Source: Spirochaetia bacterium
GTDB taxonomy: Bacteria; Spirochaetota; Spirochaetia; JAFGXN01
Direction of reading: 5' to 3'
Length of the DNA: 64,000 nt
Assembly: GCA_034120015.1 (NCBI GenBank)
Contig: JAXEIF010000007.1
Coordinates: forward strand, 78,988-142,987
Made by a program: the position numbers and the translations under genes. Positions 4,084-54,623 of this stretch are shown one piece after another. Under the pieces are notes generated by a model that searched no databases, was not told where the DNA came from, and saw nothing but the letters and a program-made list of their open reading frames with translations. The number at the start of each line of letters is the position of its first letter. Position 1 is the stretch's first letter.

Positions 4084-4084
4084 A

Positions 4085-16311: not shown

Positions 16312-16328
16312 ATTCACTCTCCTCCTGC

Positions 16329-16359: not shown

Positions 16360-16478
16360 GATTATCAGCACCCGTTACCGGGAGAACATAGGAGGATATA
16401 AAAATAATTTTTCATAAGCACCTCCGTATACTATGCTTTAACATAAAAAAAGGTTGATGACAAGAGCTTACAGGGAAT

Positions 16479-17204: not shown

Positions 17205-17212
17205 AGCCGCTC

Positions 17213-17500
17213 CTACAAAATCATTTCCGCATCGGAGACAAACATTTTTAATCCTTCCCCGGGAAAATTGGATTTCAGAATGCGAAAAGAATCACGCAAA
17301 GATGCCAGGCGGTCATCTTCGCAGTAAATGACAAGAATGAAATTTTCCTGCGGCCAGACGGCATCCCCCCATTTCTCCCCTTCCGTTCCGACACCGTGAA
17401 CATTTTCGATTTTGGTGTATGCGGTAATCTGCAGATCTGAAAAAATGTCTTCAAAATCTTCGTAAATCGAATTATTGCAGATAATTTCAATTCGCTTCAT
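17213..17500 (-). CDS. Small P-II-like (GlnB-fold) protein
   Basis: The 95-aa product has a beta-alpha-beta-beta-alpha-beta pattern: MKRIEIICNN, a helix, AYTKIENVHGVG, FILVIYCEDD, a helix, then LKMFVSDAEMI. This resembles P-II/DUF3240-type proteins. The start overlaps the RND stop by 14 nt. The family call is tentative. Confidence 0.5.
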   Translation of the reverse strand: MKRIEIICNNSIYEDFEDIFSDLQITAYTKIENVHGVGTEGEKWGDAVWPQENFILVIYCEDDRLASLRDSFRILKSNFPGEGLKMFVSDAEMIL

Positions 17501-38098: not shown

Positions 38099-39780
38099 TT
38101 AAAAGAGGAACCGCACCTTTTTCAAAAAAACAGTCACCGTTTCGTTATAAATACCCGGCTTCTGCAATGATCCGCCGTCGGGAAACGAAATCTCGTAATC
38201 GGAAAGCCGAATACCGAGACGCTCTTTCCGAAAAACGGGGATAAATATTTTCGGGATACGGTTACAGCCGGCAAACACAACCAAAATCCGCTCTTTTGCG
38301 TCGGAAACGCAGATTGCTGTCAAAATATCGTCATTCCCGGTTTCCGTAAATTGCTCTTTGCACGCATAGAAATAATAATCGACAGTTTTGATACCGACCG
38401 CATCCCGCAATTTGCACACCATTGGCGGATCGCAAACATCGCCGTCGGTTTTCCACAGCGCGCGACGTCATTCCGAAAATCATTCCCTGCCACGGATTCC
38501 CGCCGTTCTGAAGTATTACACCTCCGACTCCGAACGGGATTCCCGAAAACTCGACCGCAAAACGAACGGGAGACATGAGATCGTAACGAAACGATTCTCC
38601 GAACCCAATACGGTCGAAATACGGGAAATACTCAGTATAATGTAACGCGAGACCTCGCAAAAATCCCGTGTTGGTGTGCAAATCCAAAAGAACGCCCGGA
38701 TTGATACTCTCCATGACCCGTTTCATCCGCTTGACGACGGAGCGATCGAAAGCAACGTCATCCAGATAAAAGTCGTCCAAATCGTCATTTTTCGTCAGAC
38801 AACGCAAACTTTCGATGTAAAATAACCACTTTACCGCGGCCGGCACTGTACCGGTTTTTCGGCGGTGAGGGAGGATAAAGATTCACAAGCGGATCGGAAT
38901 AATCGTCTCCTTTCGGCTCGCAGTAGAGCCCCATTCGGCGGATCCCCACTCAGAAGCTGTCACGGGGAAATCCCCACCGGTAAATTTTTAAACAGGGTAT
39001 CTTAACGGCATTTCCGTGGAGCCCCATAACCATTTCGGGAAATTCCTTTTTCATTTCGTATTGCAAAGTTACGGAAGCATCGGCAAGAAAATCAGATTTG
39101 TGAGCCACACAGTATTCCATATACCCGTCGGCTTCAAGCATACCGCAGCCGCTGACCCGAATCGACTCGGGATAGCCGTTTTCACCGATAACAATGCGGC
39201 GGTTTAATATCATTAACACAATCTTTCTCTTCTTTTTCCTCAACCGCGACAGAGGTAAAAGGCTTAATCATGACAGAATCGTCCGAACCGGGTGTCGAAT
39301 TGAGCCGGCACAGACGCGACATCCGCAATAAATCGCTGTTACCCCGATCCGCAAAAACAGAATCCGTAATTTCCAACGAAACGGGCACGCATCTCTCCGG
39401 AAACCCGTTGACCGAAACCGTCATTTCTCCCCGGCAAACTCCGGCCGCGATTGTTTACGGGACATCGATCCCGATCCAAAACGATTTGATTTCCTGCCTT
39501 ACGACATCAACCCGCTTTTAAAAATAGCGGATGCGGGAATCGACGCCTTCGGTATTGAAACAGGTAAAAGCTGACGCCGGTAAAATTCGGGAACCGTTTC
39601 GAAAATCGGAAAAGCGAAAGCAAATATTGTCCGATCCTTTTTACCGCCGTAAAGAACCGTCTGAAATGTAAAATATTCGTTTTTATCGGCCTTCTTCGAA
39701 AACGAAGCCGAAACCGATCCGTCTATCCACTTAAACAGAAAACTGCTTCTTCATCCGAACCGGATTTCCCCTTTATTCAC
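38099..39780 (-). pseudogene. Decayed gene for a cytoplasmic glycoside-hydrolase-like protein (family tentative)
   Basis: An AAGGAG RBS and a GTG start at 39780 are intact. The reading frame is then broken by in-frame TGA codons at 39753..39751 and 38952..38950. There are also at least four frame changes, because the fragments 39182..39424, 38950..39243, 38331..38846 and 38099..38422 read collinearly in different frames. Concatenated, the peptide reads sensibly (...GLYCEPKGDDYSDPLVNLY...DDFYLDDVAFDRSVVKRMKRVMESINPGVLLDLHTNTGF...FDRIGFGESFRYDLMSPVRFAVEFSGIPFGVGGVILQNGGNPWQGMIFGMTSR...). Confidence 0.6.
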
Positions 39781-39811
39781 AGCAGTCTCCTTAAAGAGAC
39801 CCGTCTTAAAC

Positions 39812-39838
39812 CCGAAGCCGTCCGTCGGGCGGCTTCGG
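39812..39838 (-). terminator. Hairpin terminator at the 3' end of the lipoprotein operon
   Basis: A 9-bp GC-rich stem pairs CCGAAGCCG with CGGCTTCGG around a 9-nt loop, 6 nt after the stop of the 1197-aa gene. The U-tract is weak (GTTTAAG). Confidence 0.5.
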
Positions 39839-39844
39839 ACAATA

Positions 39845-42800
39845 TCATTGTGATTCAAAAGCAGGCTGACGTTCATAACCGACTGCTTCGAAAACAAAAT
39901 CGTCAGCCAACATGGCACAATGCTCTTCGTATCTTCCTGATGATGATTTTGACAATCTTTTTCTCAAGAGCAACCCCCATGTCTGGGTCACGGGATCAGA
40001 CAGATTCGCCGGAACAATTACTTTATCCAATTCAACACGAGTCCATGATCCCCTGTATGGCGTAACTGCTTTTTCTCCGAATTCCGCTCCGTTTTTTCGA
40101 TAAAGAAGTGAGGCGTTCCCTGCCTGCTGAGCCGGGCCTCTGTGTTCGAAAAAAATCCATCCTGATGCCTGGTAATGAATTCCCTTGTGAACAGTGATGT
40201 CCTGATACACATCGGCCTCAATACCGCCAATTTTATAGTTCGTTGTTTTTCCAAACGATGATACCGTATAGTGGTTATAGCCACGGGCGAAATATAGCGA
40301 AAATAATCCGCTGTGAGGAGTCGGCACCTGTAAAGCTTGCGAAGAACCGTTTGACCACGATTTTGCCGATGCCAGAATCACGGCTCCGGGATTCCGCCCG
40401 GGTGACATATTGTTCCCTGTATTTATCCATGCTGAACTCGAAGTATTTCCCCATGCATTGGCATCATAATGTCCTCTCAGAGCGAAATTACTCACAGCTC
40501 CATTTACCGGTGATGAAGAATCGTCCAAAATGCGAATATGACTTCCTGAAAGAGCGGTATTATAGGCACCTATATTTGTTTGTGCAGCTGAATCACCGGT
40601 ATTCACTTTGGTGTTCATCACGGTCCATCCCGTTACAGTATAAAAAATTCCGGTCGGTGTGCTTTCATTATTATATTTTTTCGCATAAGTGGCAATGACA
40701 TCGGTTTCTGCAGTCTCAAATCCAGGATTTTGCAACAGATTCCCGTAATAAGATTCTCCGGGAGGCTGAATATTTATCGCTATAAATTTTTCATCCGAAG
40801 TATTGCCGGCGCTGTCCGAAACCGTAAAGCGGATTTTCTGACGACCGGCTTTATACGTATTGGCTGTCGTTTTTATGTTTATTGTCAAACCGTTGGCCAC
40901 CGTATCTCCTGACAAATCGGAAACGGAAACCTGCTCCCCGTTTACATTTTGTGCGACAAGAATATTTCTCAATGCATCACTGTTTTGATTGGAAGCCCAC
41001 TCCACATTGTAACCGGTATCGATAAAAGCAGAAGGAACGGTTACCTCAGGTTTCGCTGTATCGATAATTTGAATGGTTCTTATATCGTCCGATTCTGCCA
41101 TATTTCCGAGACGATCTGATATTTTGTATTTCAGAGTATATGTACCTGTTTTTCGCCCGTTACACATTCCTGATGAACCCCATATCAGTTGTACCTCTCC
41201 GGAATCCTCAACTCCCGCACCTGAATCTGTTACGGAAATGCCCGCATCATTATAAGTCCCAGTATTGCAGTTAACCTCCTGTGATACCGTCAAATTTCCG
41301 TTCAAAGTAATAACGGGCGGAGTCTGATCCACATACACGGAAGCACTGCCGTAAGAAAGAGATTCGCGGTTAAAACGATCAATCGACCAGACTTTAACAA
41401 TGTATTCTCCGTCACCGGAGGAAGCAACAGTACCGGTATTGAGCTGCGTAGTTGTCTGCTGAAGAAGCGGCGTAGGATTTCCCGATTGAAAAATTTCATA
41501 CCTGTACGATCCCGCATCGGAAACGGTTTCCCATTCCCAGTATAACGATGCAGACTTTGTGTAAATATTGTTATTCGAAGGATTCATCACGCAATCAATG
41601 GTCGAGGATATCTGAGGAACCGGAGGAACAGTCGGAGTGACATCTACAACAAAAGGATAATGAGAAGTGGCGGAGTTCCCCTCTGTATCATATTCGGTCA
41701 CTTCAAGTGTATATTCGCCATCCGATAAATTGAAAGCGCAGAGATATTCCGCTCCTGTATTCGATTGCGATAAAATTTCGTTTTCTCCCTGAAGAAGGCG
41801 AATGTCGAAACGACCGGATCCCGATGATCCTTCCGCCGTCGTAAATGTCCAAAACGGAGTTTGAACTGTCGAATAATTTTTCCCGTCGCCGATATCGACG
41901 AAATCCTTCATGGATACAACAGGAGGAAGAATAGGAAGTATATTACTGGCAACAGCCGATACTTTTACTTTTATTTCGGATCCGGGATTTCCGCCGGAAT
42001 TGCTGACAATCGTTAAAACCGTCTCTACGTTTCTTTCCGTTGAAGATAAAAATGTGAAAACGAGAGAAATATCCGATCCTTTACTGAGCGATTGACCGAC
42101 AAGCGCACCGGCATCAACGGAGATTCCGTCCTGAGTCAAATCATTCAATGATTCCACTATCACAGGAACCGATCCCAGGTTGGAAAAAGTAACAGTTCTG
42201 TCGACAGCCTCATTCAATATTACATTCGGAAAAGACAGCGTATAATCGATTCCTGCCTCTGATGAAACAGAAACACCGGCGCCACTTAACACCAGTGTCG
42301 GCGTATCGATATTCAAAACTATTCCTGACAAAAGCAAACGAAAAATACGGTTATCGGGATCAGCCGAATTGGTCGCCAAGGTCATTGTCGACTCCGAAAC
42401 ACCCTCGGCGTCGGGAGAAAACCGAATCGGTAAATTAAAGGCCGCGTTTCCCGATAAAGACAAAGCAGATTCATCAACAGCAAAAACTTGAGGATTGCTT
42501 AATGCAATTTTGGAAATTTCCAGTCGTCCCGTTGATTCGTTGCGTAAATTCAAAACAATTTCCGATTTACTGCCGATTGTAGTCAGAGGAAAAGAAAGAG
42601 ACGATCCGTTTGAAAGAAGCATCCCGTCTTTATAGACAGAAAGAATCGGCGCCTCGCTCACAATACCGTGTCCGTTTAAAAAAACAGTTTCGGTTTTCCC
42701 GGATCCCATATCAAAAATCAGCTGAGCAGCTTCCAACGATTTGGAAGCCGAAGGAATAAAATAAACTTTATACTCCTTAATCTCATTCAATTCAAGCCGT

Positions 42801-43438
42801 TCGTTAAGAAGTTGATATACAAAAGCCCCCTGCGATTCAATTCTGAGATCCTGAGATCCCGTAAAATAAATTCTGGGCACTGATAATGATGACGCTGAAG
42901 CATTGGCAACACGAATCGTATACGTAGCCGAAGATCCTTTAAAAACCGACCCGAAATCAATCGTCCGATTAACAGGATTGATAATTCTCAAACCGGAAGA
43001 AATAAAATTTTCCGAGGCCGTTTTGGTTAATTTTATTACAATTTTTTTCGTATAAATCCGGACACTCGGTTCATACGAATATGTAAGTGTTATATCAACG
43101 CTTTTTTCAACCGGAGCGCCGACATACCTCACAAACAAGGAAACATTTGATTTTCCCGACGGTATTGCATAAGGGAAATTAATACCGGATTTAAAATCGG
43201 AATCAGTCGAAAAAACAATATTTCTGTCATTACACGTAATACCTCTCACGACAGCCGATAATTTATTATGAATATTACTGATCCCCAAAACACCGGCGTC
43301 CGTTTCATCGGACGAGAGAGTAATTCCCGCATCGGGAATATTTTTTTGATTATATGATAAAATCAAAGACTCCGATAAATCTTTTTCCGTACAACCAATG
43401 GCTAAAATCAGTATTATCAAACCAAATGCTTTTCTCAT
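39845..43438 (-). CDS. Giant surface lipoprotein G (1197 aa): beta-sandwich repeats, FN3-like and Ig-like modules, C-terminal jelly-roll domain
   Basis: The lipobox is LILAIGC, and an AGGAGG RBS precedes the start. There are about five modules of the DFG-x-V...F-x-I-x-N type (for example IDFGSVFKGSSATYTIRVANASASSL), which resemble ASH/choice-of-anchor-D folds. Two W-x-W/FN3-like modules follow (LYWEWETVSDAGSYRYEIF), then a DUF5011-like Ig module (PPVITLNGN...YNDAGISVTD...GTYTLKYKISDRLGN). The last 294 aa run from NPGFE to DDFVFE. Confidence 0.9.
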   Translation of the reverse strand: MRKAFGLIILILAIGCTEKDLSESLILSYNQKNIPDAGITLSSDETDAGVLGISNIHNKLSAVVRGITCNDRNIVFSTDSDFKSGINFPYAIPSGKSNVSLFVRYVGAPVEKSVDITLTYSYEPSVRIYTKKIVIKLTKTASENFISSGLRIINPVNRTIDFGSVFKGSSATYTIRVANASASSLSVPRIYFTGSQDLRIESQGAFVYQLLNERLELNEIKEYKVYFIPSASKSLEAAQLIFDMGSGKTETVFLNGHGIVSEAPILSVYKDGMLLSNGSSLSFPLTTIGSKSEIVLNLRNESTGRLEISKIALSNPQVFAVDESALSLSGNAAFNLPIRFSPDAEGVSESTMTLATNSADPDNRIFRLLLSGIVLNIDTPTLVLSGAGVSVSSEAGIDYTLSFPNVILNEAVDRTVTFSNLGSVPVIVESLNDLTQDGISVDAGALVGQSLSKGSDISLVFTFLSSTERNVETVLTIVSNSGGNPGSEIKVKVSAVASNILPILPPVVSMKDFVDIGDGKNYSTVQTPFWTFTTAEGSSGSGRFDIRLLQGENEILSQSNTGAEYLCAFNLSDGEYTLEVTEYDTEGNSATSHYPFVVDVTPTVPPVPQISSTIDCVMNPSNNNIYTKSASLYWEWETVSDAGSYRYEIFQSGNPTPLLQQTTTQLNTGTVASSGDGEYIVKVWSIDRFNRESLSYGSASVYVDQTPPVITLNGNLTVSQEVNCNTGTYNDAGISVTDSGAGVEDSGEVQLIWGSSGMCNGRKTGTYTLKYKISDRLGNMAESDDIRTIQIIDTAKPEVTVPSAFIDTGYNVEWASNQNSDALRNILVAQNVNGEQVSVSDLSGDTVANGLTINIKTTANTYKAGRQKIRFTVSDSAGNTSDEKFIAINIQPPGESYYGNLLQNPGFETAETDVIATYAKKYNNESTPTGIFYTVTGWTVMNTKVNTGDSAAQTNIGAYNTALSGSHIRILDDSSSPVNGAVSNFALRGHYDANAWGNTSSSAWINTGNNMSPGRNPGAVILASAKSWSNGSSQALQVPTPHSGLFSLYFARGYNHYTVSSFGKTTNYKIGGIEADVYQDITVHKGIHYQASGWIFFEHRGPAQQAGNASLLYRKNGAEFGEKAVTPYRGSWTRVELDKVIVPANLSDPVTQTWGLLLRKRLSKSSSGRYEEHCAMLADDFVFEAVGYERQPAFESQ

Positions 43439-43455
43439 CTCTTTCCTCCTTACTC

Positions 43456-46400
43456 TTATTTCATATACTCCAGTCTGAAGTTATCGACCAAAACCGCATG
43501 CCAGCTGTCGGTGACCCCCTGATTATCGATATAGATTCCCAGAGAAACGGCCCCTCCTGCCGGAGCAACAAACTCGAGGGAAAGAGTCTGCCAATCATTA
43601 TTAATTGACGAACCGTTATTTTGTGTGATAGCATTGGTATGATTTGTCACATATGATTCAAAATTTCGAGGACAAAAACCGTCTCCGGATGTTTCAACCA
43701 ACGGGGTTTTCATTGTTGCATTATGAACCTGCAACTGAACTCTGTTCGGATACCAACTGTTCGCATGCGGAGAATAATTTCGAACCTGTACTGTTGCTCT
43801 ATATTTTTGCCCTTCTATAACCGGCACTTTCTGATATAACGCCGAAAGCGCACCGACAGTGTCTGTTGTAGCGTTTGCCGTATGTACGAATTGATTCAAA
43901 TCACAAAATTTAACATAAGCATTACCGGATATCTGATCAGGCCCCCCCATTTCATCGGTAACTTTATCACTTGTCGGTTTCCCTTTTATAACTCGAATAT
44001 AAGGCTCTCGACTGGATGACTGAATATCCATCGCTTCAAGAAGCGGTTTATCACTGTTGTATGTGATACTCAAATCCCACTCGTATGAAGAAGAAAATGT
44101 TTTGTTGATACGGACACGCGGAATAGTTCGAACCAGCCAATCGGAATAAGGATTCGTTTCAAAACTCGGATTCTTTATTCCAATTGAAGGATAGACTGTT
44201 AAATTCTGTGTTAAAGAAACGGACTCATCGCTTCCGTCAGATTTTCGAAATAATGCAGTCACCGTAAACGGTTTATTTTCCCGTTGAGAAGCATCCTGTT
44301 CATAGGGAATGATCAGGGACGCTCGGCGGGAAGAAGAAGATGGTAAATCCACAAAATCCGTTCCTTCCACCGTATATTGAAACTGTATCTGCGGATAATC
44401 GCTTCCCAACCACTGGGACATAAACTCTCCGCTTCTCGAAGGAAGAATGGATGTCTTTTTTAAATCAAGACCGATTCCTTCTGATAAAATCGGAAAATCG
44501 ACTGAGTTATAATCATTCTTTCCTGTAATCTCAATTTGTGCCGAAGCGAGATTCAAAACAGCGAACTGGCGTTCCACCGTCACGGAATTCTCCAAAAGAT
44601 CCGTAACATGATAAGTTGCTTTATAAACACCCTCCGTAAAAGAAGAAATAAGATCATAATTGACTGTACAACGTAAATCTCCGTTAGAAAAATTATTATC
44701 CGTGTACTCAATTCCCGGATCGAAATCTTCGATTCGCAATTGGGAATTATACAATACAGGCATAATAACAATCGGAGTTGCCGCGCTCTCATGCTGTTTC
44801 TTCAACGTCACTTTCGGAGCCATTGTATCAATCAAAAGAAAACTTTGGGCAATTTCCCCTTCCCGACCATATGCATCAACAGAGCGGACTTCGAAAACAT
44901 ATTCGCCGGAAGAAAGCGCAATGTTTCCTCGGGAAAAAGTATTTGAAGACTGGCTAATCCAGGCAACTCCATCGGATCCTGCCGTAGCCGAATACAGTCG
45001 ACACAGATAAGAGACAACAGCATCCGAATCCGACGTCCATGTCCAAACAGGTTTACTGCTGGAAGAAAGAATCTTTCCCTTTAATGTTTCCGTAGCCCCG
45101 TTCTCCGGATAAATCGAATGCGGAGAAGATATGGTTATTGTCGGCGGAGCCGGCTGTTCACGGGAAACAATCAGATTAAGCCGGGCAGGATCCGAAGAAT
45201 GATCCGAGGAATCTTTTTCCGTGACAATCAGCTGATATGTCCCTGACGGAAGAGCGGATCCGTCTTCTGCCTGCAAGTCCAACACAACAGACGAATCATC
45301 TCCCTTGTCAATCACTGATTTATACAAGATATTCCACGCCTGGTTTACAAACTGATGAACTTCATATTCAAACTTACCGACTCCCGAGGATCCCAGCGGA
45401 GTCGAAATAACAAAACGGGGATCTCCCGTTTCTTCTCCGAAAAAAGCGGGGCCGCTCACAACGGGTATCAAAAGATCTTTCGAATCATGACAAGAACCGG
45501 ATAGATAAAAAGTAAATGTTTCCGCACTGCTGTCATTAGATGAAATGAATATTTTTGCATCATACTGCCCTTTGTCCTTCCCCAAAACATCGAATACTGC
45601 GTGAATCTCCAACTCGTTTCCGCTTTCCAAAACTTTTTCAGAGATTTCTCCTTCTTTAACCGAAAAAGCTTCTCCTTCCGTATTCTCGCAAACAACGGAA
45701 TATATCCTTAATGCTGCCGTTCCAGTACTTTTCAGAAGAATCGGAAGTTCGACGCTTTCATCCTCGGGAGTAAGTTGCGGAAACGAAATCCGTTCTCCGT
45801 CTGAAAGTTTTGATCCGTCGAAAAGCACCTGAAGTCGCGGCATATTATTCTGAAGTACGGAACCGATCAAAGTCAAATTTAAATTAGGTTGATCTACGGA
45901 ATTTGATCGAATCGACAATTGATTCGAAACATTACCAATTCTCATCGGATGAAAATAAATTTTAAAATCGAAAGACGCACCGGCATTCAGAAGAACAGGA
46001 AGAGAATATGTATCGGCAAATTGAAAATCCGGAACTCCGGACGGAATTTCCAGACCGGAAATGCGCAGGGGATTTGCCCCCTTATTGGTTATCCTGAATG
46101 TTTCCGGGGTTCCCTGCTGATTAATTGCAACATCCGCAAAACGATAAGTAGTGCCGTTCGTGTACGTTTCTCCACCGGCTGATAAAACAAGAAGCGGATC
46201 GTTTGAAACAATCGGTGCTCCTTCCGCATTGAAAGAAAAAGCCCCTGTTGTTGTTGTAACCGTCACCGGTTTTACAATAAGACCCGAAGGAAGTAAGTCG
46301 TGAGAACGAAATTCAATCGGTATTTTAATCTGCGAACCGGGAGTAACCGAAACCGGAAGTTTCATAGAAGTATCCAGATAATAAGGATCGGCCGAAGTAA

Positions 46401-46965
46401 TACCGGTAATCGTTACCGCCTCCGAGGTGATATTTGAAAAAGAAATTTGCTTCACTGTCGACACACCCCGAATTACTTCTCCAAAACGCAATGTTGTTAT
46501 ATTACCCGTGAAAATCAATCCACTGTTTCCTATCCCCTGTGCCAATGAACTGATTTTGGCTTTTACCGGAAACGAAATAACCGCAGCAGGCGTTTTTCCG
46601 TCAGCTGCTGCAAAAGAACAGGTCACGGTACAGGAAAGTTCGCCGACAGATGACGGCAGATACTGCAGTACAAAAGAAAATTTTTCTCCCGGTTTCATTG
46701 AAAACGGGAACGCGATATCATTCAGCCCGACTGATTTGATTTTAAAGTCAACGGAAGAGGATTTTATCGAACTGACAATCACCGTCTGTCCCGAAGGGTT
46801 TGTCAAATTCAAAGCAATCATCTTTTTGTCAGCCGTAAACTCGGAAAAATCGATTCCGTCTTCGGAGAGTACCGCATTTCGGTACTCGAAAGAGAGCGTC
46901 GGCTGTTCACTCGGACATGAAACAATAAGAAATACAACAGATAAAATCAAAAGCAACTTTTTCAT
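43456..46965 (-). CDS. Giant surface lipoprotein F (about 1169 aa), paralogue of G
   Basis: I moved the start to the ATG at 46965 (MKKLLLILSVVFLIVSC), because the TTG at 46980 lies inside the GAGGAGG RBS. The module order matches G: beta-sandwich repeats such as LRFGEVIRGVSTVKQISFSNITSEAV, then VWTWTSDSDAVVSYLCRLY, then a C-terminal 238-aa domain running from NPSFE to VDNFRLEY. Confidence 0.9.
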   Translation of the reverse strand: MKKLLLILSVVFLIVSCPSEQPTLSFEYRNAVLSEDGIDFSEFTADKKMIALNLTNPSGQTVIVSSIKSSSVDFKIKSVGLNDIAFPFSMKPGEKFSFVLQYLPSSVGELSCTVTCSFAAADGKTPAAVISFPVKAKISSLAQGIGNSGLIFTGNITTLRFGEVIRGVSTVKQISFSNITSEAVTITGITSADPYYLDTSMKLPVSVTPGSQIKIPIEFRSHDLLPSGLIVKPVTVTTTTGAFSFNAEGAPIVSNDPLLVLSAGGETYTNGTTYRFADVAINQQGTPETFRITNKGANPLRISGLEIPSGVPDFQFADTYSLPVLLNAGASFDFKIYFHPMRIGNVSNQLSIRSNSVDQPNLNLTLIGSVLQNNMPRLQVLFDGSKLSDGERISFPQLTPEDESVELPILLKSTGTAALRIYSVVCENTEGEAFSVKEGEISEKVLESGNELEIHAVFDVLGKDKGQYDAKIFISSNDSSAETFTFYLSGSCHDSKDLLIPVVSGPAFFGEETGDPRFVISTPLGSSGVGKFEYEVHQFVNQAWNILYKSVIDKGDDSSVVLDLQAEDGSALPSGTYQLIVTEKDSSDHSSDPARLNLIVSREQPAPPTITISSPHSIYPENGATETLKGKILSSSSKPVWTWTSDSDAVVSYLCRLYSATAGSDGVAWISQSSNTFSRGNIALSSGEYVFEVRSVDAYGREGEIAQSFLLIDTMAPKVTLKKQHESAATPIVIMPVLYNSQLRIEDFDPGIEYTDNNFSNGDLRCTVNYDLISSFTEGVYKATYHVTDLLENSVTVERQFAVLNLASAQIEITGKNDYNSVDFPILSEGIGLDLKKTSILPSRSGEFMSQWLGSDYPQIQFQYTVEGTDFVDLPSSSSRRASLIIPYEQDASQRENKPFTVTALFRKSDGSDESVSLTQNLTVYPSIGIKNPSFETNPYSDWLVRTIPRVRINKTFSSSYEWDLSITYNSDKPLLEAMDIQSSSREPYIRVIKGKPTSDKVTDEMGGPDQISGNAYVKFCDLNQFVHTANATTDTVGALSALYQKVPVIEGQKYRATVQVRNYSPHANSWYPNRVQLQVHNATMKTPLVETSGDGFCPRNFESYVTNHTNAITQNNGSSINNDWQTLSLEFVAPAGGAVSLGIYIDNQGVTDSWHAVLVDNFRLEYMK

Positions 46966-46976
46966 GCACCGCCTCC

Positions 46977-49187
46977 TCAATATTTTACCGGAATAATCCG
47001 GACATTATCTATCCAGGTTCCCGTACCGTTCCGATCGGCTCCGTTTCCGATATCAGTTTTACCAAATCGCAAATCGATATATCCGTCCTGTGTCGGCGTA
47101 AACTCCAGTTCGATGAGATTCCATGTTCCCTCTCTGTTCATCGATCGCGTCGAAACATAGCGGGAAACCTGCGTTCCGTTATTCACATTCTGAACCGATC
47201 CGTCTGCTTTGTATGTTTTTCCCGTCAGCCTCAGAGAAGGAGAGAAATCGGATCGGGAAACAAAAAATTCGACATCCTGAGAAGAAGCATGAATCTGATA
47301 CATAAAGTCAACATTCAGCTTGTACGTAACATCGGCGTAAACAAATATTTTCTTTTGCATAATTGCTCCGACCGTACGCGTATAATAATGAGCCATGCTG
47401 ATCGGTATCGAAGTATTCGGGATGTATTCTTCTTCAGCCGTTCTGATTACACCGCATAGGAACGCGGAGCTGTACCCGACAGATCCTTTCGATGAGGCTT
47501 CGGCAAAATTGGCAGAAGCGAATCGCTCACTGTATGCAAAAGGACCGACACCGTTGTATACTTCGCCCCATTGGGAATAAGTTCCCGCAACTTTAAACGC
47601 ACGGACATTTTCGAACTGCCATCCGACGATTTGATTTGTATCCTTATCCAATTCACCGATTGCAGGCGCATAATCCTCAAAACTGTAATTTTGAACAACG
47701 GGCTCCGGAGGCGGAAGAATTCTGACGATTCGGGTAAATCTGTATGAACGGTTTCCTGCCGTATCTTCACCGTAATAAACTGTTTCGTAGGTTCCCGGAA
47801 TTCTCGTATTAATCTGTTCGATCTCTGTTTTCTGTATTATTAAAACATCCTGAGCGGCCGATTCATCGACGGCAATCACATTGGAAATAATCAGATTTTT
47901 CGGCGAATCATAAGGCAATTCCTGAACCTCGGTCAAATCGGAAGTTAAAACCACGTCTTCCCAGACAGTCTCCGTTTTTTTATCGGTTTCTCCTTCCTCG
48001 GGATCGGATTCACTTTTTCTCGGTACAGTCACAGTCAGGACAGGCGGTGTCACATCATATACTTCAATAAAACGATGCGCTGTTGAACTGTTGCCGGAAT
48101 CATCCGTTGCCGTATAAACAATTTTATACAATCCGATATCTTTGAGTATATTTTTTAAATCCTCATCCGAAACAATTTTTTCAAAAGTAGGGTTCGATGT
48201 GCTGTCGATTTTGTAAACGGAAACAAATTTGCGAACTTCGGAAGTTTCATCTTCGGCATTAAAATCGTACAAAAGTCCAGACGTATCGCCAAATTCCTTT
48301 GTTTTGTCAGCGGGAAATGTTTCGTAGGGCTCCTTCGTAAGGGTTATTACAGGAGGAACAGCGTCATCAACTATAATAATATACCGGGTTGTACTGACTG
48401 TCGTCTCTCCAACAGTCAGTGTATAAGAAACCGCTTGCGGATTAAAATTGACAGCATCGTATTTAACACCGGAATAGTCCGGAGATACATAGGAAGAAAC
48501 ATCCCCGTATTCTCTGCAATAAGCTCTCCATCCCGGTTCGACCATCATGATGCCGCTCAAATACTGGTTCTCGGATTTTGCCTGTCCGACTCGAAGCGGA
48601 TTTTGTTCACTTCTTCCGTCTCCGTCCAAAATAATAACCGGCTCTTCGGGAATCACAACCTGAACCGTTCGAACCGCAGTATGCAAAATTCCCAAAGAAT
48701 CCGTAAACGAGTATTTAATGGTATAATTGCCGGGAACATCATTTTTAAAATTAGACTCGACTTTAACGGAAGAAAGGCAATCGCTACCGTCGGTGTCGAC
48801 AGCTTCGATTCCGGGATCATCAAATGTCTCGAGAAGTCTGATTCTAACAACACTTTCTCCTTTCATTGACAGCGTCCCCGTGTCGGATACAACATTGACA
48901 ACCCGAAATGCTTCCGCTGTTCCGCCGTTTCTCGAAGCAACAGAATATGCGATTGAATATGAACCGGGAGTAGACAAATCTATACCGGTTCTGTCTACGC
49001 AAACACGCGAAGAAATATCGCCATCAATTGAACTGTTAGCAATATATCCCGGTTCAATGTATACACCTCCGACTTTTACATAAATGACCGGAGCACCCTG
49101 TAGAGAAATCACAACATAATCTTCAACTGTGTCCGCACACCCGACAAGAATGAGTATAACTGTCAGAATAGTCGTCAATCTGTTCAT
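46977..49187 (-). CDS. Surface lipoprotein E (736 aa): three or more DUF5011/HYR-like Ig modules plus a C-terminal jelly-roll domain
   Basis: The lipobox is LILVGC. Ig-like modules match the pattern P-x-I-x-L-x-G...Y-x-(D/E)-P-G...D-x-x-D-G...G-x-Y-x-I-x-Y. Examples are GAPVIYVKVGGVYIEPGYIANSSIDGDI...PGSYSIAYSV and FDDPGIEAVDTDGSD...PGNYTIKYSFTDSLG. The last 237 aa run from NYSFE to WIDNVRI. The start overlaps the D stop (ATGA). Confidence 0.9.
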   Translation of the reverse strand: MNRLTTILTVILILVGCADTVEDYVVISLQGAPVIYVKVGGVYIEPGYIANSSIDGDISSRVCVDRTGIDLSTPGSYSIAYSVASRNGGTAEAFRVVNVVSDTGTLSMKGESVVRIRLLETFDDPGIEAVDTDGSDCLSSVKVESNFKNDVPGNYTIKYSFTDSLGILHTAVRTVQVVIPEEPVIILDGDGRSEQNPLRVGQAKSENQYLSGIMMVEPGWRAYCREYGDVSSYVSPDYSGVKYDAVNFNPQAVSYTLTVGETTVSTTRYIIIVDDAVPPVITLTKEPYETFPADKTKEFGDTSGLLYDFNAEDETSEVRKFVSVYKIDSTSNPTFEKIVSDEDLKNILKDIGLYKIVYTATDDSGNSSTAHRFIEVYDVTPPVLTVTVPRKSESDPEEGETDKKTETVWEDVVLTSDLTEVQELPYDSPKNLIISNVIAVDESAAQDVLIIQKTEIEQINTRIPGTYETVYYGEDTAGNRSYRFTRIVRILPPPEPVVQNYSFEDYAPAIGELDKDTNQIVGWQFENVRAFKVAGTYSQWGEVYNGVGPFAYSERFASANFAEASSKGSVGYSSAFLCGVIRTAEEEYIPNTSIPISMAHYYTRTVGAIMQKKIFVYADVTYKLNVDFMYQIHASSQDVEFFVSRSDFSPSLRLTGKTYKADGSVQNVNNGTQVSRYVSTRSMNREGTWNLIELEFTPTQDGYIDLRFGKTDIGNGADRNGTGTWIDNVRIIPVKY

Positions 49188-49591
49188 TTTTTACCTCCCG
49201 ATTTACCGGTTCGAAAATAAAGAGTATTCAGTTCTTCCCCTATAAATGTCAGAGTAAAATTTTCTACCACATAGCTGATTGTTACGGGAATCACATTTTT
49301 ATTCTCAGAAATAAAGCGTATTCGGGGAACTGCCGTTGAATCATGAGTATAACGAATCCTCACTTCGTAATGTCCTTTATCCCTGTCAATCACAGATTGC
49401 CCTCCCGAATCTTTTATGATACGGGTCCATATATACGTCCCGTCTTCTTTTAAAACGAGTTCTTCCCGGACAAATGAATCACGGCCGTTCATTTGTTCCG
49501 TATACCACTCCCCGACAATATCGGTCTTTTGCTCCTGAAAACAGGACCACAAACACAAAACCGTCAAAACAGAAATTAAAATTTGTTTCAT
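49184..49591 (-). CDS. Small lipocalin-like lipoprotein D (135 aa)
   Basis: The lipobox is CLWSC. KTDIVGEWYTEQ...REELVLKEDGTY resembles the G-x-W start of bacterial lipocalin-like domains. It is a paralogue of the 148-aa protein at 54126..54572. Confidence 0.8.
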   Translation of the reverse strand: MKQILISVLTVLCLWSCFQEQKTDIVGEWYTEQMNGRDSFVREELVLKEDGTYIWTRIIKDSGGQSVIDRDKGHYEVRIRYTHDSTAVPRIRFISENKNVIPVTISYVVENFTLTFIGEELNTLYFRTGKSGGKK

Positions 49592-49605
49592 CGTTTTTTC
49601 CTCAT

Positions 49606-52476
49606 TTACTTCTGATAGCCGTAATACATTTCCGGATACCGTTCCTTCGCGAAATCGGAATTAACGGGAATCGGACGATATTTCAAATTAATCCGCGTAA
49701 AACACATCGCATTGGTATCACCCTCAAACGGAAACAGTTCACCGCCGGCATCAAAAGCTTCTCTTCCGAGCGCCAATCCGTTTTTCAAAAGATTCTGCTT
49801 TCCGACATTTGTCGATTCATAATATGGAATCAGCTGATCGGGTTTTAGGGAGAAATTTCCGACTCCGTTATACGTAAGACTGACCGATCCGTTATTATCC
49901 CACAATCCCCACTGATAGTTATAGTCCCGGACTCCGATCTGCATTTTGCAGCTGCCGTTATACATCGGCGTTGTAAAAGAAAACTCAAATGTAACCGACT
50001 GTCGTTTATTACTGTCCAGTCCGGCTGTCAATGCAATTTCTTTATCGGTTTTAATTGAAAAACCTTTCCAGTCGGAATATCCGTTCTGGATTCCTCCCCG
50101 TCCCGTGCCCGAAAGTCCGTTCACCTGAACAGTCAGATAAGCCGCCGCTTTCCCTTTTGAGTTTTCTCCGTAAACTTTTTGATCGGCTCCCATCAGATAA
50201 GAAATTGTCTTCGTCCATGCGTAACGAGGTATCATAATAATCGAAAGACGGTTAAGTGCCGTGTCCTTCATCCAATTTGCCAAATGTCCGAATTCCAAAT
50301 CGGTCAACGCAGGCCAGCCAACAGCCTGCTTATGCTGAGGACTCCATTCCGGATCTCCTTTTCTTTCGATCGAAACATGATATTCGATTTTGACCGCCCG
50401 TTCCATATCAAACTCTTTCTGCCGCTTGATATCTTTCCATGCTTCGGTATCCCACGCAGAATAATCCCAAATATGACGCCGGTATCCGTCCGAAGAAGAG
50501 GAATCGGGAATCGGTTTTCCGTCACGAAAATCATGCATCGGATCATTAAAAACAAATTCTTTCGTTGACGTATTAAAATATTTATTTAAATCAAAAGTCT
50601 CGATCGCTTCGATATGAGGTTGTCCCTTTTTCTCGAATGACACACCACCAATCGATTTACGGGGTTCGGCTAGCGGATAAACTCCCGTCTCATCACCATA
50701 ACGGCAAACCCTTTTTAATGTAAAATTCAGACGGGAAAGATTTTTTATTTCGGCATCGGAAATATTAATTTTTCCCGTTACACGAACCGATCCGCGGTTA
50801 TTTTTATCTCCCTGAGTAGCCGAAACCGACAAGATTTCCGGTACGGGGATTGTATAATCACTGTTCGGAGCTGAAAAACCGCACCACCCGACCTGACTGT
50901 TCCCCAATTCCGGTTCTGTCATTAACGACTCGAGCGTCGGACCGTTTTCATATAACAGTTCCGATTTGAGTTCTTCGGGAAGAACGAATGTCCAATCTGT
51001 TCCGAAAATCGAATGATCGGCAGGAAGCATATCTACACCGTTGAAAGAAGCAACAGGCACAACTCTGTAAAACATCTCGTCCTGTTCCAAATTGGCGCCG
51101 GATTCTTTATCCAGCCAGAGTGTGACATCTTTTTCCGTTTTGCAGGCAAATTCCCAATCTTTTGGTGCGATCGCTCCTCCGGAAACCGCTCCCGGAGGAT
51201 TGACAGGACCATAGCGGAAAATATAATAAGATGATGCTCCGGATACAGGATTCCATTGTACCTTAAATCCTTCACGGCTGACAAATACAGAAATAGATTC
51301 ATTATTAAAATTACGAATACCATATCCGAAAGAAGTCTTCCTTTGTGCATCTGTATCAAAAGCGCTCGAACGTCCGATACCGATTGTGTTTTTTGCGGCG
51401 ACTCTGTAGTAGAAGGAAGAACCGTTTCCGACAGCAGGATCACTGTCATAATAAGTCACCGTTCCTCTTGTCAGATCATTAATAAGAAAATCTTTGATAT
51501 TCGGAATTTCCGTTCCGACCGTATTCCCTGCAGCCAGATCATCTTCCGTAATCCGATAAAGCAAATACGAATCACAATTAACAGTATTCCATGTTATTCG
51601 TATCTTATCTTGAATCAATCCTTTCGTCACATTTAAAACAACAGGTTGGGCAGGTACTCCGACGGCCAACAACGCTCCCCGCGCAGCATAAGAAGGACGA
51701 CTGCGCGTATTCGTATCTTTATGTGCATAAAGACGATAAAAATAATCATACTGAGGAATCAGATCTCCGCCGTCCGAAGTCGAAAAATCACGGTAAACAA
51801 ACTGAGAAGTTATCTCATCAAACGACGATTCGATGATCGGATTTCCGATTCGGGAATAGGCCTTATCACTGAGCGGTGCTTCTCCTCCGGTTTCCACGCG
51901 CGCCCGTTCAATCGTATAATATAAAGCTCCGTCAACAGGATTCCATCTCAGCTCAACATAATCGGATCGGTCACGCAGGGATGCGGAAAAATATGAGGGG
52001 CCTTTAACCAAATATCCCTGTGCGGCCACACTGAGATCACCGGCAAGATTATGCGCATCGGAATAAGCTCTGATACGATAATAATAGATCATCTCCGGAT
52101 CAAGACCGTCCGAGTCCAAATACTGAGTATAATGATTCGAATACAAAGGCGAACTGTTTAAGAGTATATAATTGACATTATCAACGGAGCGGTAAATAAA
52201 ATACAATGCAACTTTATTTCCATAAACAACAGGTTTCCAGGTAATTTCGATCCTGTCTTCATAACTTCCTTTCGATGCGATAACACCTATGGGAGACGGA
52301 ATCTGCGATGATATCGTCAACTCCAAATCATTTTCAATAGTATAAGGCGATTCCGATTCTTCCAATTCCGGAGCCGACACCGTATTGTAATTTAAATTTT
52401 TTCCTGTCAGACTATTCTGTACACATGAAAACAGTAACGAAAAAGTAAATAACAATATAATAATTAATCGTTTCAC
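49606..52476 (-). CDS. Surface lipoprotein C (956 aa): four or more FN3-like modules plus a roughly 400-aa orphan C-terminal region
   Basis: The start is a GTG at 52476, preceded by AGGAGG. The lipobox is LLFSC. FN3-like signatures are IEITWKPVVYGNKVALYFIYR, VELRWNPVDGALYYTIER, IRITWNTVNCDSYLLYR and FKVQWNPVSGASSYYIFR. I recognise no family for the C-terminal half. Confidence 0.88.
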   Translation of the reverse strand: MKRLIIILLFTFSLLFSCVQNSLTGKNLNYNTVSAPELEESESPYTIENDLELTISSQIPSPIGVIASKGSYEDRIEITWKPVVYGNKVALYFIYRSVDNVNYILLNSSPLYSNHYTQYLDSDGLDPEMIYYYRIRAYSDAHNLAGDLSVAAQGYLVKGPSYFSASLRDRSDYVELRWNPVDGALYYTIERARVETGGEAPLSDKAYSRIGNPIIESSFDEITSQFVYRDFSTSDGGDLIPQYDYFYRLYAHKDTNTRSRPSYAARGALLAVGVPAQPVVLNVTKGLIQDKIRITWNTVNCDSYLLYRITEDDLAAGNTVGTEIPNIKDFLINDLTRGTVTYYDSDPAVGNGSSFYYRVAAKNTIGIGRSSAFDTDAQRKTSFGYGIRNFNNESISVFVSREGFKVQWNPVSGASSYYIFRYGPVNPPGAVSGGAIAPKDWEFACKTEKDVTLWLDKESGANLEQDEMFYRVVPVASFNGVDMLPADHSIFGTDWTFVLPEELKSELLYENGPTLESLMTEPELGNSQVGWCGFSAPNSDYTIPVPEILSVSATQGDKNNRGSVRVTGKINISDAEIKNLSRLNFTLKRVCRYGDETGVYPLAEPRKSIGGVSFEKKGQPHIEAIETFDLNKYFNTSTKEFVFNDPMHDFRDGKPIPDSSSSDGYRRHIWDYSAWDTEAWKDIKRQKEFDMERAVKIEYHVSIERKGDPEWSPQHKQAVGWPALTDLEFGHLANWMKDTALNRLSIIMIPRYAWTKTISYLMGADQKVYGENSKGKAAAYLTVQVNGLSGTGRGGIQNGYSDWKGFSIKTDKEIALTAGLDSNKRQSVTFEFSFTTPMYNGSCKMQIGVRDYNYQWGLWDNNGSVSLTYNGVGNFSLKPDQLIPYYESTNVGKQNLLKNGLALGREAFDAGGELFPFEGDTNAMCFTRINLKYRPIPVNSDFAKERYPEMYYGYQK

Positions 52477-52485
52477 AACTTCCTC

Positions 52486-54123
52486 CTATTTGGTTATTAT
52501 GACAGAAACTTTGTTACTGAGACGTGATGTTGTATTGTCACTTGCCGCATATTCTACTCTGTAATCGATAAAATCCTGCTCCAGAACAGTCTTTGAATCT
52601 ATAACGGAGACGGAACCGTTTTTTACCGGAAGCGGATCGGCATTAACAAGTCCGTATTGAATATCCTGAGCTGTACGTCTGAAAACATTCACAAACTGTC
52701 GTCCAATCGGTATACCCGTAACAGTAATTGTCACGGAGTCTCCGTTTAATACGGCACCGAGAATCGGGTCAGCCGCCATTTGAGGACCTTTCGAATCCGT
52801 AACATACCCGCCAAACAGACCGGTTTCGGGTGTTTCATAACGACGTACCGTATCATCATGCGCATAAACAGCCTTTACTTTAAAATAAACCGGCTTTTTC
52901 CATTTATACTGATACCAGCTTTCTGTCGATCCAGGTTTTTTCATTTCGACGCGGTATTTAAACGTTACGATGCCTTGCTCATTCGTTCGTGAATAAAAAA
53001 GACTATCCGCATGCTCGCTAAATCCGTCCGGAGGATTTGCTTTTCTGTTGACTTCGGAAATTTCCGTCAAAAGTTCCAATCCATGTTCCGATGAATCGAT
53101 ATAATTAAAACCGGGTCGAAAAATCACATTATATAAATCCTTAAAATTCGGATTGCCCGGCTCCATTAAAGCCGAAAACTTCCAACCGGCAGGTGAATAT
53201 TCCGGAAAAGGGAAAACTCCCGAACCGAGAAGCTCCGTGTCGTGCCCCAATTCAAATTCTCTTTGGGCGTTTCGAAGTTTGGAATTAATTTTCCATGTCA
53301 GCTCCAAAATCGAAGTTTCATTTGTAAGAGTAAAACCATCGGACGGAAGCCCGACAACTTCAAGATCGTAAGGAGCGGGAAGGATGTACCCGATATTCAC
53401 TGATGAAAACTCGGAACGGGCTCCATATCTGTCGAAAGCAACAACTCCGTAATCATAAATAACGCCGTCTTCGGCTGTCAAATCTTTATAGACAATCATA
53501 GGAACCGTATTGTCATAAGGAATAAAACAGTCATCGATACATTGCCATTCTTCATCCGAAGCCGCATTCGTTTTACGGTAAATTTCGTAGCGAAAAGCAT
53601 CCGCCGCCGGAGTCCATGAGAATTCAATGTTTCTTGAGGTTCCCCTCGTCAAAGAAAAAGAATTCATTGTTCCCGTAAACACCGACTCTTTCCTGACCGT
53701 TATATCCGATATAACAGAAAAAGCACTCTCGATTCCCGATTCGGAAACGGAAGTCAATTTAACATAGCGATGGAATTCAGACGCTTGTCCCGAAAATGAA
53801 AAAGGAGGGAGTACATACAGATTGTCTGCAATCGGTTTCGGATTCATTTTTAAGAAAGATCCTTCCTGTTCCTCCGAGAAATAAATGTTATAGCCGGAGG
53901 CATAAGGATTGATTTCCCAAAAAAGCGTCACCAAATGATCGGCACCATCAATTTCGATATAATAATCGATACTTGTCGGCGGAAGAATTTGCTTCCCGGA
54001 AAAAATCGAATCCAATACGGAATCCTTATTCAAATCATTTGTCAGCACATACTTTGACGGATTCAGCAAATCACATGACGTAAAAAGCAAGAATAGAGAA
54101 AGAATGTATATTCTGTTTCGCAT
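52486..54123 (-). CDS. Surface lipoprotein B (545 aa) with FN3-like modules
   Basis: The lipobox is LLFTSC, and an AGGAGG RBS lies inside the end of gene A. FN3-like signatures are VTLFWEINPYASGYNIYF, IEFSWTPAADAFRYEIYR and LELTWKINS. Confidence 0.88.
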   Translation of the reverse strand: MRNRIYILSLFLLFTSCDLLNPSKYVLTNDLNKDSVLDSIFSGKQILPPTSIDYYIEIDGADHLVTLFWEINPYASGYNIYFSEEQEGSFLKMNPKPIADNLYVLPPFSFSGQASEFHRYVKLTSVSESGIESAFSVISDITVRKESVFTGTMNSFSLTRGTSRNIEFSWTPAADAFRYEIYRKTNAASDEEWQCIDDCFIPYDNTVPMIVYKDLTAEDGVIYDYGVVAFDRYGARSEFSSVNIGYILPAPYDLEVVGLPSDGFTLTNETSILELTWKINSKLRNAQREFELGHDTELLGSGVFPFPEYSPAGWKFSALMEPGNPNFKDLYNVIFRPGFNYIDSSEHGLELLTEISEVNRKANPPDGFSEHADSLFYSRTNEQGIVTFKYRVEMKKPGSTESWYQYKWKKPVYFKVKAVYAHDDTVRRYETPETGLFGGYVTDSKGPQMAADPILGAVLNGDSVTITVTGIPIGRQFVNVFRRTAQDIQYGLVNADPLPVKNGSVSVIDSKTVLEQDFIDYRVEYAASDNTTSRLSNKVSVIITK

Positions 54124-54125
54124 CT

Positions 54126-54572
54126 TTATTTGTCCTCCTTTTTCAAATAAACCGCAGTCGTATCACCGTTCCCGACATCGACAAGCGACAGATTCTCTCC
54201 GAACTGAGTTAAAATAAAATTACGGACAACAGGTGTAATCAATTCATCGGAAGGAATAAAAGCAACGGTAAAATCGCTTTTTGAAACCTGAAGAGAACCC
54301 GAAAATGAAAGATTCTTATCGGGCTTTCCGTCGGTAAAATAATTCCAGGTAAACTTTCCCGGAATAATCGTTTTATCAACCTTCCCTTCCGCATTTTTAA
54401 ACTTCCCGCTACTGAGTTCGATTGTCAGCTCTTCTCTTATATTCTCGTTGCGGGCAGAGACGGAATAACGAATCCATGTTCCCGTTATATCCGTCTTATT
54501 TGAAAAATCGACTGCACATGAAAGTGCAACAAACAGTAATGACAAAAAGAAAACCCGTTTAAACTCAAACAT
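54126..54572 (-). CDS. Small lipocalin-like lipoprotein A (148 aa), first gene of the operon
   Basis: The lipobox is FVALSC. KTDITGTWIRYS...REELTIELSSGKF aligns with protein D. The RBS is AAGGAGAGG. Confidence 0.8.
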   Translation of the reverse strand: MFEFKRVFFLSLLFVALSCAVDFSNKTDITGTWIRYSVSARNENIREELTIELSSGKFKNAEGKVDKTIIPGKFTWNYFTDGKPDKNLSFSGSLQVSKSDFTVAFIPSDELITPVVRNFILTQFGENLSLVDVGNGDTTAVYLKKEDK

Positions 54573-54594
54573 AACCTCTCCTTTTACTTTTTAT

Positions 54595-54623
54595 AATTAT
54601 CACTGAGAAAATTAAAAAATCAA
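54595..54623 (-). promoter_or_regulatory. Candidate sigma70-type promoter of the lipoprotein operon
   Basis: The minus strand reads TTGATT (54623-54618), a 17-nt spacer, then ATAATT (54600-54595). A TG lies 1 nt upstream of the -10 element, giving an extended -10 look. The spacer is AT-rich, and the element lies about 25 nt upstream of the gene A ATG. Confidence 0.5.

Follow-up and report, generated by a model that had tools for sequence, protein, structure and literature searches.

Which function could be served by seven consecutive genes that all encode lipoproteins and among which no enzyme, transporter or regulator family is recognised? This question is raised by a locus of a Spirochaetia bacterium (GTDB lineage JAFGXN01; assembly GCA_034120015.1), which lies in a 64,000-nucleotide (nt) stretch of contig JAXEIF010000007.1 (positions 78,988–142,987 of the forward strand; this whole stretch is hereafter the window). 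Its genes, numbered G1 to G7 in their reading order, are the following:

54126–54572, minus strand: G1 (module position A), small lipoprotein of 148 residues, Cys19.
52486–54123, minus strand: G2 (position B), lipoprotein of 545 residues, Cys17, with an FN3-like array in its N-terminal half.
49606–52476, minus strand: G3 (position C), lipoprotein of 956 residues, Cys18, GTG start; the most conserved gene of the module.
49184–49591, minus strand: G4 (position D), small lipoprotein of 135 residues, Cys17, a paralogue of G1.
46977–49187, minus strand: G5 (position E), lipoprotein of 736 residues, Cys17, with PF16403 repeats and a C-terminal head.
43456–46965, minus strand: G6, accessory lipoprotein of 1169 residues, Cys17, with choice-of-anchor-D/HYDIN-type Ig domains and a C-terminal head.
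39845–43438, minus strand: G7, accessory lipoprotein of 1197 residues, Cys16, with choice-of-anchor-D, Big_13 and PF16403 domains and a C-terminal head.

The sizes, gaps and lipobox cysteines of these back-to-back genes agree with the preliminary description of the locus, which had been made from the nucleotide sequence alone and had proposed a dedicated multi-component surface assembly. According to our analysis, the proteins do appear to form a functionally linked set, whose gene order and lipobox are kept in relatives down to 25–30% identity, but the unit is G1–G5 and not all seven genes. Our best reading of this set, which we put forward tentatively, is a lipid-anchored glycan-capture assembly independent of SusC and SusD. 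An adhesin, glycan capture and a coat had all been named as possible roles, and it is glycan capture that gains some support, from the glycosidase neighbours of the related loci.

The lipoprotein criterion used was a sequence rule, namely a basic n-region, a hydrophobic h-region and a lipobox Cys within approximately the first 25 residues, and by this rule all seven proteins are predicted substrates of signal peptidase II. Each product begins with one to three basic residues and a hydrophobic stretch, followed by a Cys at residue 16–19; from G1 to G7 the motifs are FVALSC, LFTSC, LLFSC, CLWSC, ILVGC, LIVSC and LAIGC. This Cys is conserved in the homologues: it is invariant in family alignments down to approximately 25% identity and nearly invariant over 36 relatives of G3, and its conservation is the strongest sequence-level evidence for the predicted lipoprotein status.

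Relatives of the locus are very few. Only seven full-length relatives of G3 were obtained from 5.8 billion proteins by a word-indexed search, and an exhaustive HMMER search of 1.84 billion representatives with a profile of the G3 head gave 44 clusters, with 28 lying below 1e-30. The pattern scan of 185,579 species-representative genomes revealed ten loci, a lower bound because the patterns were narrow, and all of them were in four uncultured metagenome-assembled genomes (MAGs) of Spirochaetales/Spirochaetaceae, with two or three module loci per genome. One further locus was found among 241 million metagenome records, and the module is also known from a few metagenome contigs. The related loci are labelled L002, L005 and so on.

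In every locus with enough flanking sequence, the genes follow the order A-B-C: a small lipoprotein of approximately 140 residues, a repeat lipoprotein of 507–1703 residues and a G3-type protein. These are usually followed by D, a second small lipoprotein (approximately 130–150 residues), and E, a PF16403 lipoprotein (700–825 residues); A-B-C stands alone at L019/L020 and L021/L022, and L023 has C-E. The order A-B-C-D-E, together with the lipobox, is kept at 25–45% identity in at least five genomic contexts, among them mutY...zupT (the window type), a divergent gene of glycoside hydrolase family (GH) 20, a Tex/indolepyruvate-oxidoreductase context and others. Since these contexts differ, it is selection that preserves the gene order, and not descent from a single ancestral neighbourhood. 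The evolutionary unit is the G1–G5 core, with a trio of the G1–G3 type as its minimum, and G6 and G7 are accessory. Conservation of order combined with paralogous copies is typical of proteins working together and of substrate-specific loci.

The same synteny contradicts the idea that unrelated lipoprotein genes have come to lie side by side by chance, an explanation with which the promoter-like matches inside the cluster would agree but which we consider highly improbable. Besides the order conserved in differing contexts, the gaps of −4 to 17 nt and the paralogies within the locus speak against it. The families of G1 and G4 are homologous (hhalign probability 96%, E 2.5e-9), and the alignment of the G1 family has an invariant C19, G31 and W33. 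Residues 1–281 of G2 align to the FN3 array of G3 in several registers (hhalign 97%, E 4e-11). Paralogy also links G6 to G7, with 23% identity over 768 alignment columns. Because of these internal paralogies, the locus reads as two putative sub-units, each headed by a small lipoprotein: G1-G2-G3 and G4-G5(-G6-G7).

Genes of the G6 and G7 types were found only at loci of the window type and at L002, and their history differs from that of the core. Two species groups can be distinguished, with a difference of approximately 25% in the QueA protein and approximately 25–30% at the nucleotide level over the upstream genes and G1–G4. Between L026 and L024, however, nucleotide identity is 98–100% from the 3′ third of G5 via G6 and G7 to zupT and rpsU; in this comparison (approximately positions 11,500–20,500 of L026), G7 contains patches of 84–94%, and identity drops to 69% in pyrD. 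At L007, which belongs to a second strain of the distant species, the breakpoint lies approximately 1.5 kb further downstream, inside G6. The pattern indicates a recent inter-species recombination of a G6–G7 cassette. Chimerism of the assemblies is an unlikely cause, because the pattern recurs in independent assemblies from different studies and the sequence further downstream is again of the host type. In the window, G6 and G7 have only 73–79% identity to all the others and therefore represent a separate allele. The exchange suggests that selection at the cell surface acts on this part of the locus.

At L002, the G6-type gene is split (15130–18558) into an 851-residue lipoprotein and, after 72 nt, a 266-residue open reading frame without a signal peptide, which matches the head of G6 (residues 908–1168). 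This is either a frameshift or assembly error, or a naturally separate head.

Exchange between species and a distinct allele in the window are typical of exposed, selected surface proteins, and these features favour an explanation without a nutrient role, in which the proteins would make up a layer on the cell surface or serve as adhesins for host proteins, particles or other cells, or would shield the outer membrane. Spirochaete adhesins are also usually built as lipid-anchored arrays of Ig-like and FN3 domains, G5 and G7 have weak, sub-threshold matches to the Leptospira OmpL47-type and LapB-repeat models, and no carbohydrate-binding module, transporter or enzyme was found in the seven proteins. 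However, the core, and G3 above all, diverges no faster than the flanking mutY (G3 83% and mutY 79% identical between the window and L005), which argues against strong diversifying selection on the core. An adhesin or coat would also leave the recurrent glycosidase neighbours unexplained, and we regard it as unlikely, although it deserves serious consideration.

G3 is the slowest-evolving member of the locus (83–85% identity to its orthologues, compared with 63–77% for the six remaining genes between the window and L005), and two parts of it can be delineated:

Residues ~60–480, nt 51037–52299, minus strand: FN3-like stalk of four tandem domains, from the AlphaFold2 model and Foldseek.
Residues ~540–956, nt 49609–50859, minus strand: orphan C-terminal head, composed of a beta-sandwich, a helical insert, a second beta-sandwich and an ordered irregular tail.

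The AlphaFold2 model of G3, built from the 36-sequence alignment (mean predicted local distance difference test score, pLDDT, of 88), shows in succession a signal helix, a low-confidence tether (residues 19–42), four FN3-like sandwiches (approximately 60–480) and a C-terminal region of approximately 420 residues. A Foldseek search of the PDB with this model matched domains FN1–4 of LAR (E 7e-14) and FN7–10 of fibronectin (E 3.6e-12). An FN3 fold is thus predicted for G3 at the level of structure, and G2 aligns with the same array; at the sequence level, the Pfam FN3 match of G3 reaches 21.1 bits, under the cut-off of 25.

Neither Pfam nor, at E ≤ 10, PDB sequence profiles gave a match for the head. 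In the model, its helices span residues 672–684, 726–741 and 751–761, and the second beta-sandwich spans residues 764–877. The head is the best-conserved part of the locus: Y672, E678, K681, R685 and Y699 are invariant over the 36 sequences, D645, W670, D676, W680, N742, Y800, D802, W803 and N930 are near-invariant, and the alignment has no invariant His, Cys or Ser. This pattern would suit a sugar-binding or glycosidase-like site and a structural salt-bridge network equally well. The same head also ends proteins of approximately 930, 600 and 1650 residues whose N-terminal repeats differ (FN3, PKD-like and Big_13/Y_Y_Y stalks, respectively), and all of them have a lipobox. The occurrence of one head on different stalks suggests that the head is the functional end and that the repeats are spacers.

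Foldseek with full-length G3 against the PDB and viral libraries was uninformative on the head, as FN3 arrays dominated the matches. A phage tail fibre was considered and rejected, since the viral matches were to FN3 only. Modelling of the head alone from seven sequences was poor (pLDDT 56), and its Foldseek matches were meaningless (TM score ≤ 0.2).

Searches of the seven proteins against Pfam, NCBIfam and PADLOC detected no family of enzymes, transporters or regulators, and none of the seven matched a PADLOC anti-phage model. To this extent the preliminary description was right, but its further statement that no catalytic motif is present is unsafe: the G3 head has no Pfam or PDB match, and "no enzyme" cannot be asserted for a locus that includes such an orphan with invariant Glu, Lys, Arg and Tyr. 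The head might itself be an enzyme of a new kind, such as an endo-acting glycanase or glycopeptidase, with the other lipoproteins as its substrate-binding partners. Such a role would agree with the position of the head as the most conserved segment, with its invariant E678, K681, R685, Y672 and Y699, with the near-invariant D645, D676 and D802 and several Trp residues, and with its lack of known relatives; the exo-glycosidases that adjoin some modules would moreover need an endo-acting partner. On the other hand, apart from a short helical insert the model predicts mostly beta-sandwich and offers no recognisable hydrolase scaffold, no His, Cys or Ser is invariant, and a single helix carries the conserved charged residues, whose role could be merely structural. 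We consider a catalytic module improbable.

The remaining proteins are built on related principles, and three of them have C-terminal heads of their own:

Residues ~497–736 of G5, nt 46980–47699, minus strand: C-terminal head without a Pfam or PDB match.
Nt 43459–44244, minus strand: C-terminal head of G6, distinct from the heads of G5 and G7.
Nt 39848–40747, minus strand: C-terminal head of G7, without a PDB match and with no detectable kinship to the heads of G5 and G6.

The Ig-like and FN3-like modules ascribed earlier to these proteins were substantiated by PF16403, by choice-of-anchor D and, for G3, by the predicted structure, with the limitation that FN3 stays below the Pfam threshold. 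The PF16403 model (Bact_surface_Ig-like, DUF5011; cut-off 27 bits) matched three stretches of G5 with 123.4 bits; G7 passes with 28.1 bits, and G6 fails with 14.4 bits. The choice-of-anchor D model NF012200 (NCBIfam cut-off 45) scored 74.3 bits in G6 and 52.6 bits in G7 and had no match in G1–G5. G6 also matched PF22544 (55 bits), and G7 matched Big_13 (39.6 bits). No significant Pfam or NCBIfam match was obtained for G1, G2 or G4; the sole trace in G2 was a faint Pfam match to GH85_C, which is FN3-like. Single-sequence searches of the PDB gave no match for G7 and only a chance-level match for G3, and profile searches of the PDB with the G1 and G4 families gave no significant match.

The heads of G5, G6 and G7 had been taken for jelly-roll or carbohydrate-binding domains, and this found no support in Pfam or in PDB sequence profiles. 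Pfam at E ≤ 10 gave nothing usable for the heads and small proteins and nothing relevant of the CBM4/9/22 type for these three heads, and PDB profiles at E ≤ 10 gave no match for the heads of G5 and G7. That the three are copies of one jelly-roll found no support either, as hhalign detected no relationship among them. The head of G5 has a pattern (N-x-[GS]-F-E ... GW ... D-[DN]-[VI]) that is kept in the E proteins of other loci.

From these elements, the following scheme can be proposed for the glycan-capture reading. G1–G5 would be co-inherited lipid-anchored envelope proteins, with G6 and G7 as add-on members. Each large protein would consist of an acylated N-terminal Cys, a short flexible tether, a rigid FN3- or Ig-like stalk and a family-specific C-terminal globular head. 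At the cell surface, the heads, held off the membrane, would bind glycans or glycoconjugates of host type, and the head of G3 may also cleave them. The captured substrate would then be presented to lipoprotein exo-glycosidases, which in related genomes are encoded beside the modules. G1 and G4 may be adaptors or partners close to the membrane, with one serving the G2–G3 pair and the other G5 (plus G6 and G7), so that the products could come together in a physical complex. No dedicated outer-membrane transporter would belong to the locus.

The only hint at function, and at the ligand proposed in this scheme, comes from the genes that adjoin some of the loci. At L021/L022, a GH95 protein with its own lipobox, whose relatives are annotated as alpha-L-fucosidase, is encoded 18 nt downstream of the A-B-C trio on the same strand. 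Five loci of type II adjoin a divergent GH20 gene whose product has a signal peptide and a possible lipobox, and L002 has a GH109-like gene two genes upstream. The window itself contains only a relic:

38331–39424, minus strand: remnants of a GH123 (beta-N-acetylgalactosaminidase family) gene, between G7 and zupT, on the same strand as the module.

These remnants are three colinear fragments of open reading frames that match PF19543 at positions 288–350, 429–494 and 725–852 (E 1.9e-9, 3e-3 and 7e-49); the N-terminal third and internal parts are missing. They sit directly after the G7 hairpin in a 1.8-kb gap, and in the close relatives L005, L024 and L026 there is no GH123 remnant and zupT follows approximately 100 nt after G7. 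GH123 was thus rejected as an eighth module gene, being decayed in the window and absent in the relatives. Enzymes of GH95, GH20, GH109 and GH123 remove terminal sugars typical of host glycans according to the CAZy classification, and as neighbours of the module they are a suggestive clue to a role in glycan use.

Several observations weigh against the glycan-capture reading. An adjacent glycosidase was found in only approximately four of approximately ten independent contexts: the type III loci, L009, L018, L019 and L023 have none, nor do the close relatives of the window have a glycosidase next to the locus, and the association with GH20 may represent one inherited neighbourhood. Pfam and PDB profiles detected no carbohydrate-binding module in the heads, and no transporter or regulator links the locus to nutrient uptake. 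Finally, spirochaete lipoproteins are often periplasmic, and localisation is not readable from sequence.

Other glycan-related genes lie at some distance from the modules. The window encodes an 861-residue glycosidase of the GH2 family at 59641–62226 (minus strand), approximately 5 kb upstream of the locus and beyond mutY, queA, ruvBAC and yebC; L005 has it at the same position, and so does L006 as judged from size, position and tblastn identity. The more distant species carries an inserted gene immediately before the module, between queA and mutY (L024, 1270–3465; L007, 4572–6767); its product is a 731-residue lipoprotein with chitobiase/hexosaminidase C-terminal, Fn3_assoc and PI-PLC-X domains, and the gene has no counterpart in the window. 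At L009, the second module of MAG CAYJGX01, a sulfatase gene lies four genes upstream (2168–3694) and is not adjacent; the protein has an N-terminus resembling a signal peptide and, at its C-terminus, an N-sulphoglucosamine sulphohydrolase domain, and enzymes of this type act on host glycans.

The lipobox does not give the localisation, and the products might alternatively be periplasm-facing lipoproteins, anchored in the inner membrane or in the inner leaflet of the outer membrane, that contribute to envelope architecture like many treponemal lipoproteins. The locus lies among housekeeping genes (ruvABC, queA, mutY, zupT and rpsU) and has no export, transport or regulatory partner, which would accord with such a sub-surface complex. 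Against it stands the great rarity of the module, with 44 clusters among 1.84 billion representatives, one locus in 241 million metagenome records and four genomes of 185,579, which is ill-suited to a basic envelope function. The divergent paralogous copies within genomes and the horizontal exchange of the accessory part do not favour it either, and stalks of hundreds of residues would be hard to fit in the periplasm. A location beneath the surface thus has little probability in our estimation.

As for known systems, the closest likeness is to the SusE/SusF-type surface glycan-binding proteins of the polysaccharide utilization loci of Bacteroidota. Common to both are the lipid anchor, the stalk of tandem Ig- or FN3-like domains and the distal C-terminal head, as well as the presence of several such proteins per locus, of several divergent paralogous loci per genome and of glycoside hydrolase lipoproteins alongside, here in some relatives. 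However, the examined loci have no SusC-like TonB-dependent transporter, SusD or sensor/regulator in or beside them, belong to another phylum, lack sequence similarity and a recognisable carbohydrate-binding module in the heads, and are linked to glycosidases inconsistently. A Sus-like locus was rejected on this basis, as no TonB-dependent receptor, Plug or SusD was present in the seven proteins, their neighbours or the gene tables of related loci.

Among spirochaetes, the Lig and OmpL47 proteins of Leptospira and the choice-of-anchor-D proteins are likewise lipoproteins of bacterial Ig-like repeats, but the known ones are single-gene adhesins, Lig uses Big_2, and a five-gene module and a G3 head are lacking there. 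The locus was not assigned to this group, since Big_2 is absent and the corresponding models score far below their cut-offs (NF047441, 16.3 bits versus 250; NF047446, 25.1 and 22.9 bits versus 40). Dentilisin of Treponema denticola (prcB-prcA-prtP) is also encoded by a spirochaete lipoprotein operon, whose products assemble into one surface complex of the outer membrane, but it is built around a subtilisin-family protease without homology here; Pfam and NCBIfam found no Peptidase_S8 or other protease family in the seven proteins, and a complex of this type was rejected. Cargo of the type IX secretion system was dismissed because the seven proteins have no Por_Secre_tail/TIGR04183-type sorting domain and end in family-specific heads, and fimbriae because pilin and usher families are absent. 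The literature searches for a named spirochaete system found nothing relevant. The earlier view that the locus matches no named system was thus borne out by the profile libraries, in which Pfam and NCBIfam gave no placement in a characterised system, and by the literature. The locus is a rare, lineage-restricted version of the stalk-and-head theme of surface lipoproteins, with a new domain family.

The expression of the locus can be judged from the spacing of its genes, which together comprise 4,886 codons. From G1 to G7 the gaps are 2, 9, 14, −4, 11 and 17 nt, with a 4-nt overlap between the stop of G4 and the start of G5, and the upstream neighbour mutY, on the same strand, is separated from G1 by 94 nt. 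The strong AGGAGG-type ribosome-binding site ascribed to every gene is present as GGAGG before six of them, whereas G4 has only a weaker GAGGA; G6 starts at an ATG with such a site (1169 residues), and an alternative TTG 15 nt upstream would give 1174 residues. The tight spacing, a ribosome-binding site before every gene and a single sizeable gap, upstream of G1, argue for coupled expression and co-transcription of G1–G7. Two candidate signals flank the genes:

54596–54623, minus strand: promoter-like site TTGATT-16-GATAAT, consensus score 9 of 12, in the 94-nt gap between mutY and G1.
39811–39839, minus strand: GC-rich hairpin 6 nt past the stop of G7, with 12 pairs including one G-U, −20.2 kcal/mol, z = −1.6.

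The promoter-like site had been considered the only one in the cluster. It is real and is the sole such match located in an intergenic gap, yet a consensus scan of 38–56 kb gave 40 matches versus 31.4 ± 5.6 in shuffled sequences, which is chance level, and several minus-strand sites within genes outscore it. The hairpin, claimed as the unique terminator, is stable, but it is followed by only three U and was not called by the terminator scan, and its uniqueness was not upheld. The sole perfect promoter consensus on both strands of the 64 kb, TTGACA-16-TATAAT at 51200–51227, lies on the plus strand, antisense within G3, where it overlaps the conserved FN3 motif SYYIFRYGPV. In relatives it reads TTGACG-16-CATAAT (L006 and L026) or is lost (L005), and such partial retention makes it a probable by-product of the coding sequence.

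Elsewhere the window consists of ordinary core chromosome, with genes for MurJ, Tgt, LptF/G, PNPase, IF-2, NusA, a resistance-nodulation-division (RND) efflux operon, ruvABC, queA and mutS, and zupT follows 1.8 kb downstream of G7. The G+C content of the cluster (0.41–0.445 over 40–54 kb) is below that of the upstream flank (0.48–0.53 over 56–64 kb) and somewhat below that of the flank at 36–40 kb (0.47). A tRNA scan and Rfam at gathering score found nothing in the whole window. The homologues of LptF and LptG (2989–5380) indicate that this spirochaete probably exports a lipopolysaccharide-like lipid to the outer membrane.

In its most far-reaching form, the glycan-capture reading would make G1–G5 a previously unrecognised glycan-harvesting machine without SusC and SusD, apparently confined to spirochaetes, in which the head of G3 would represent a new fold, and a new family, for glycan recognition or catalysis; we regard this stronger proposal as doubtful, though worth stating. 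Should the proteins turn out to reside in the periplasm or to act in adhesion only, what is left would be a rare lipoprotein family specific to one lineage. The head of G3 also provides structural and biochemical work with a new domain family. Nutrient acquisition at the surface of uncultured host-associated spirochaetes is largely obscure, and the Sus-type systems on which foraging by Bacteroidota depends are lacking there. A module composed entirely of predicted lipoproteins, multiplied within genomes and at times located beside genes for fucosidase or hexosaminidase, is a concrete and testable candidate for such a foraging system.

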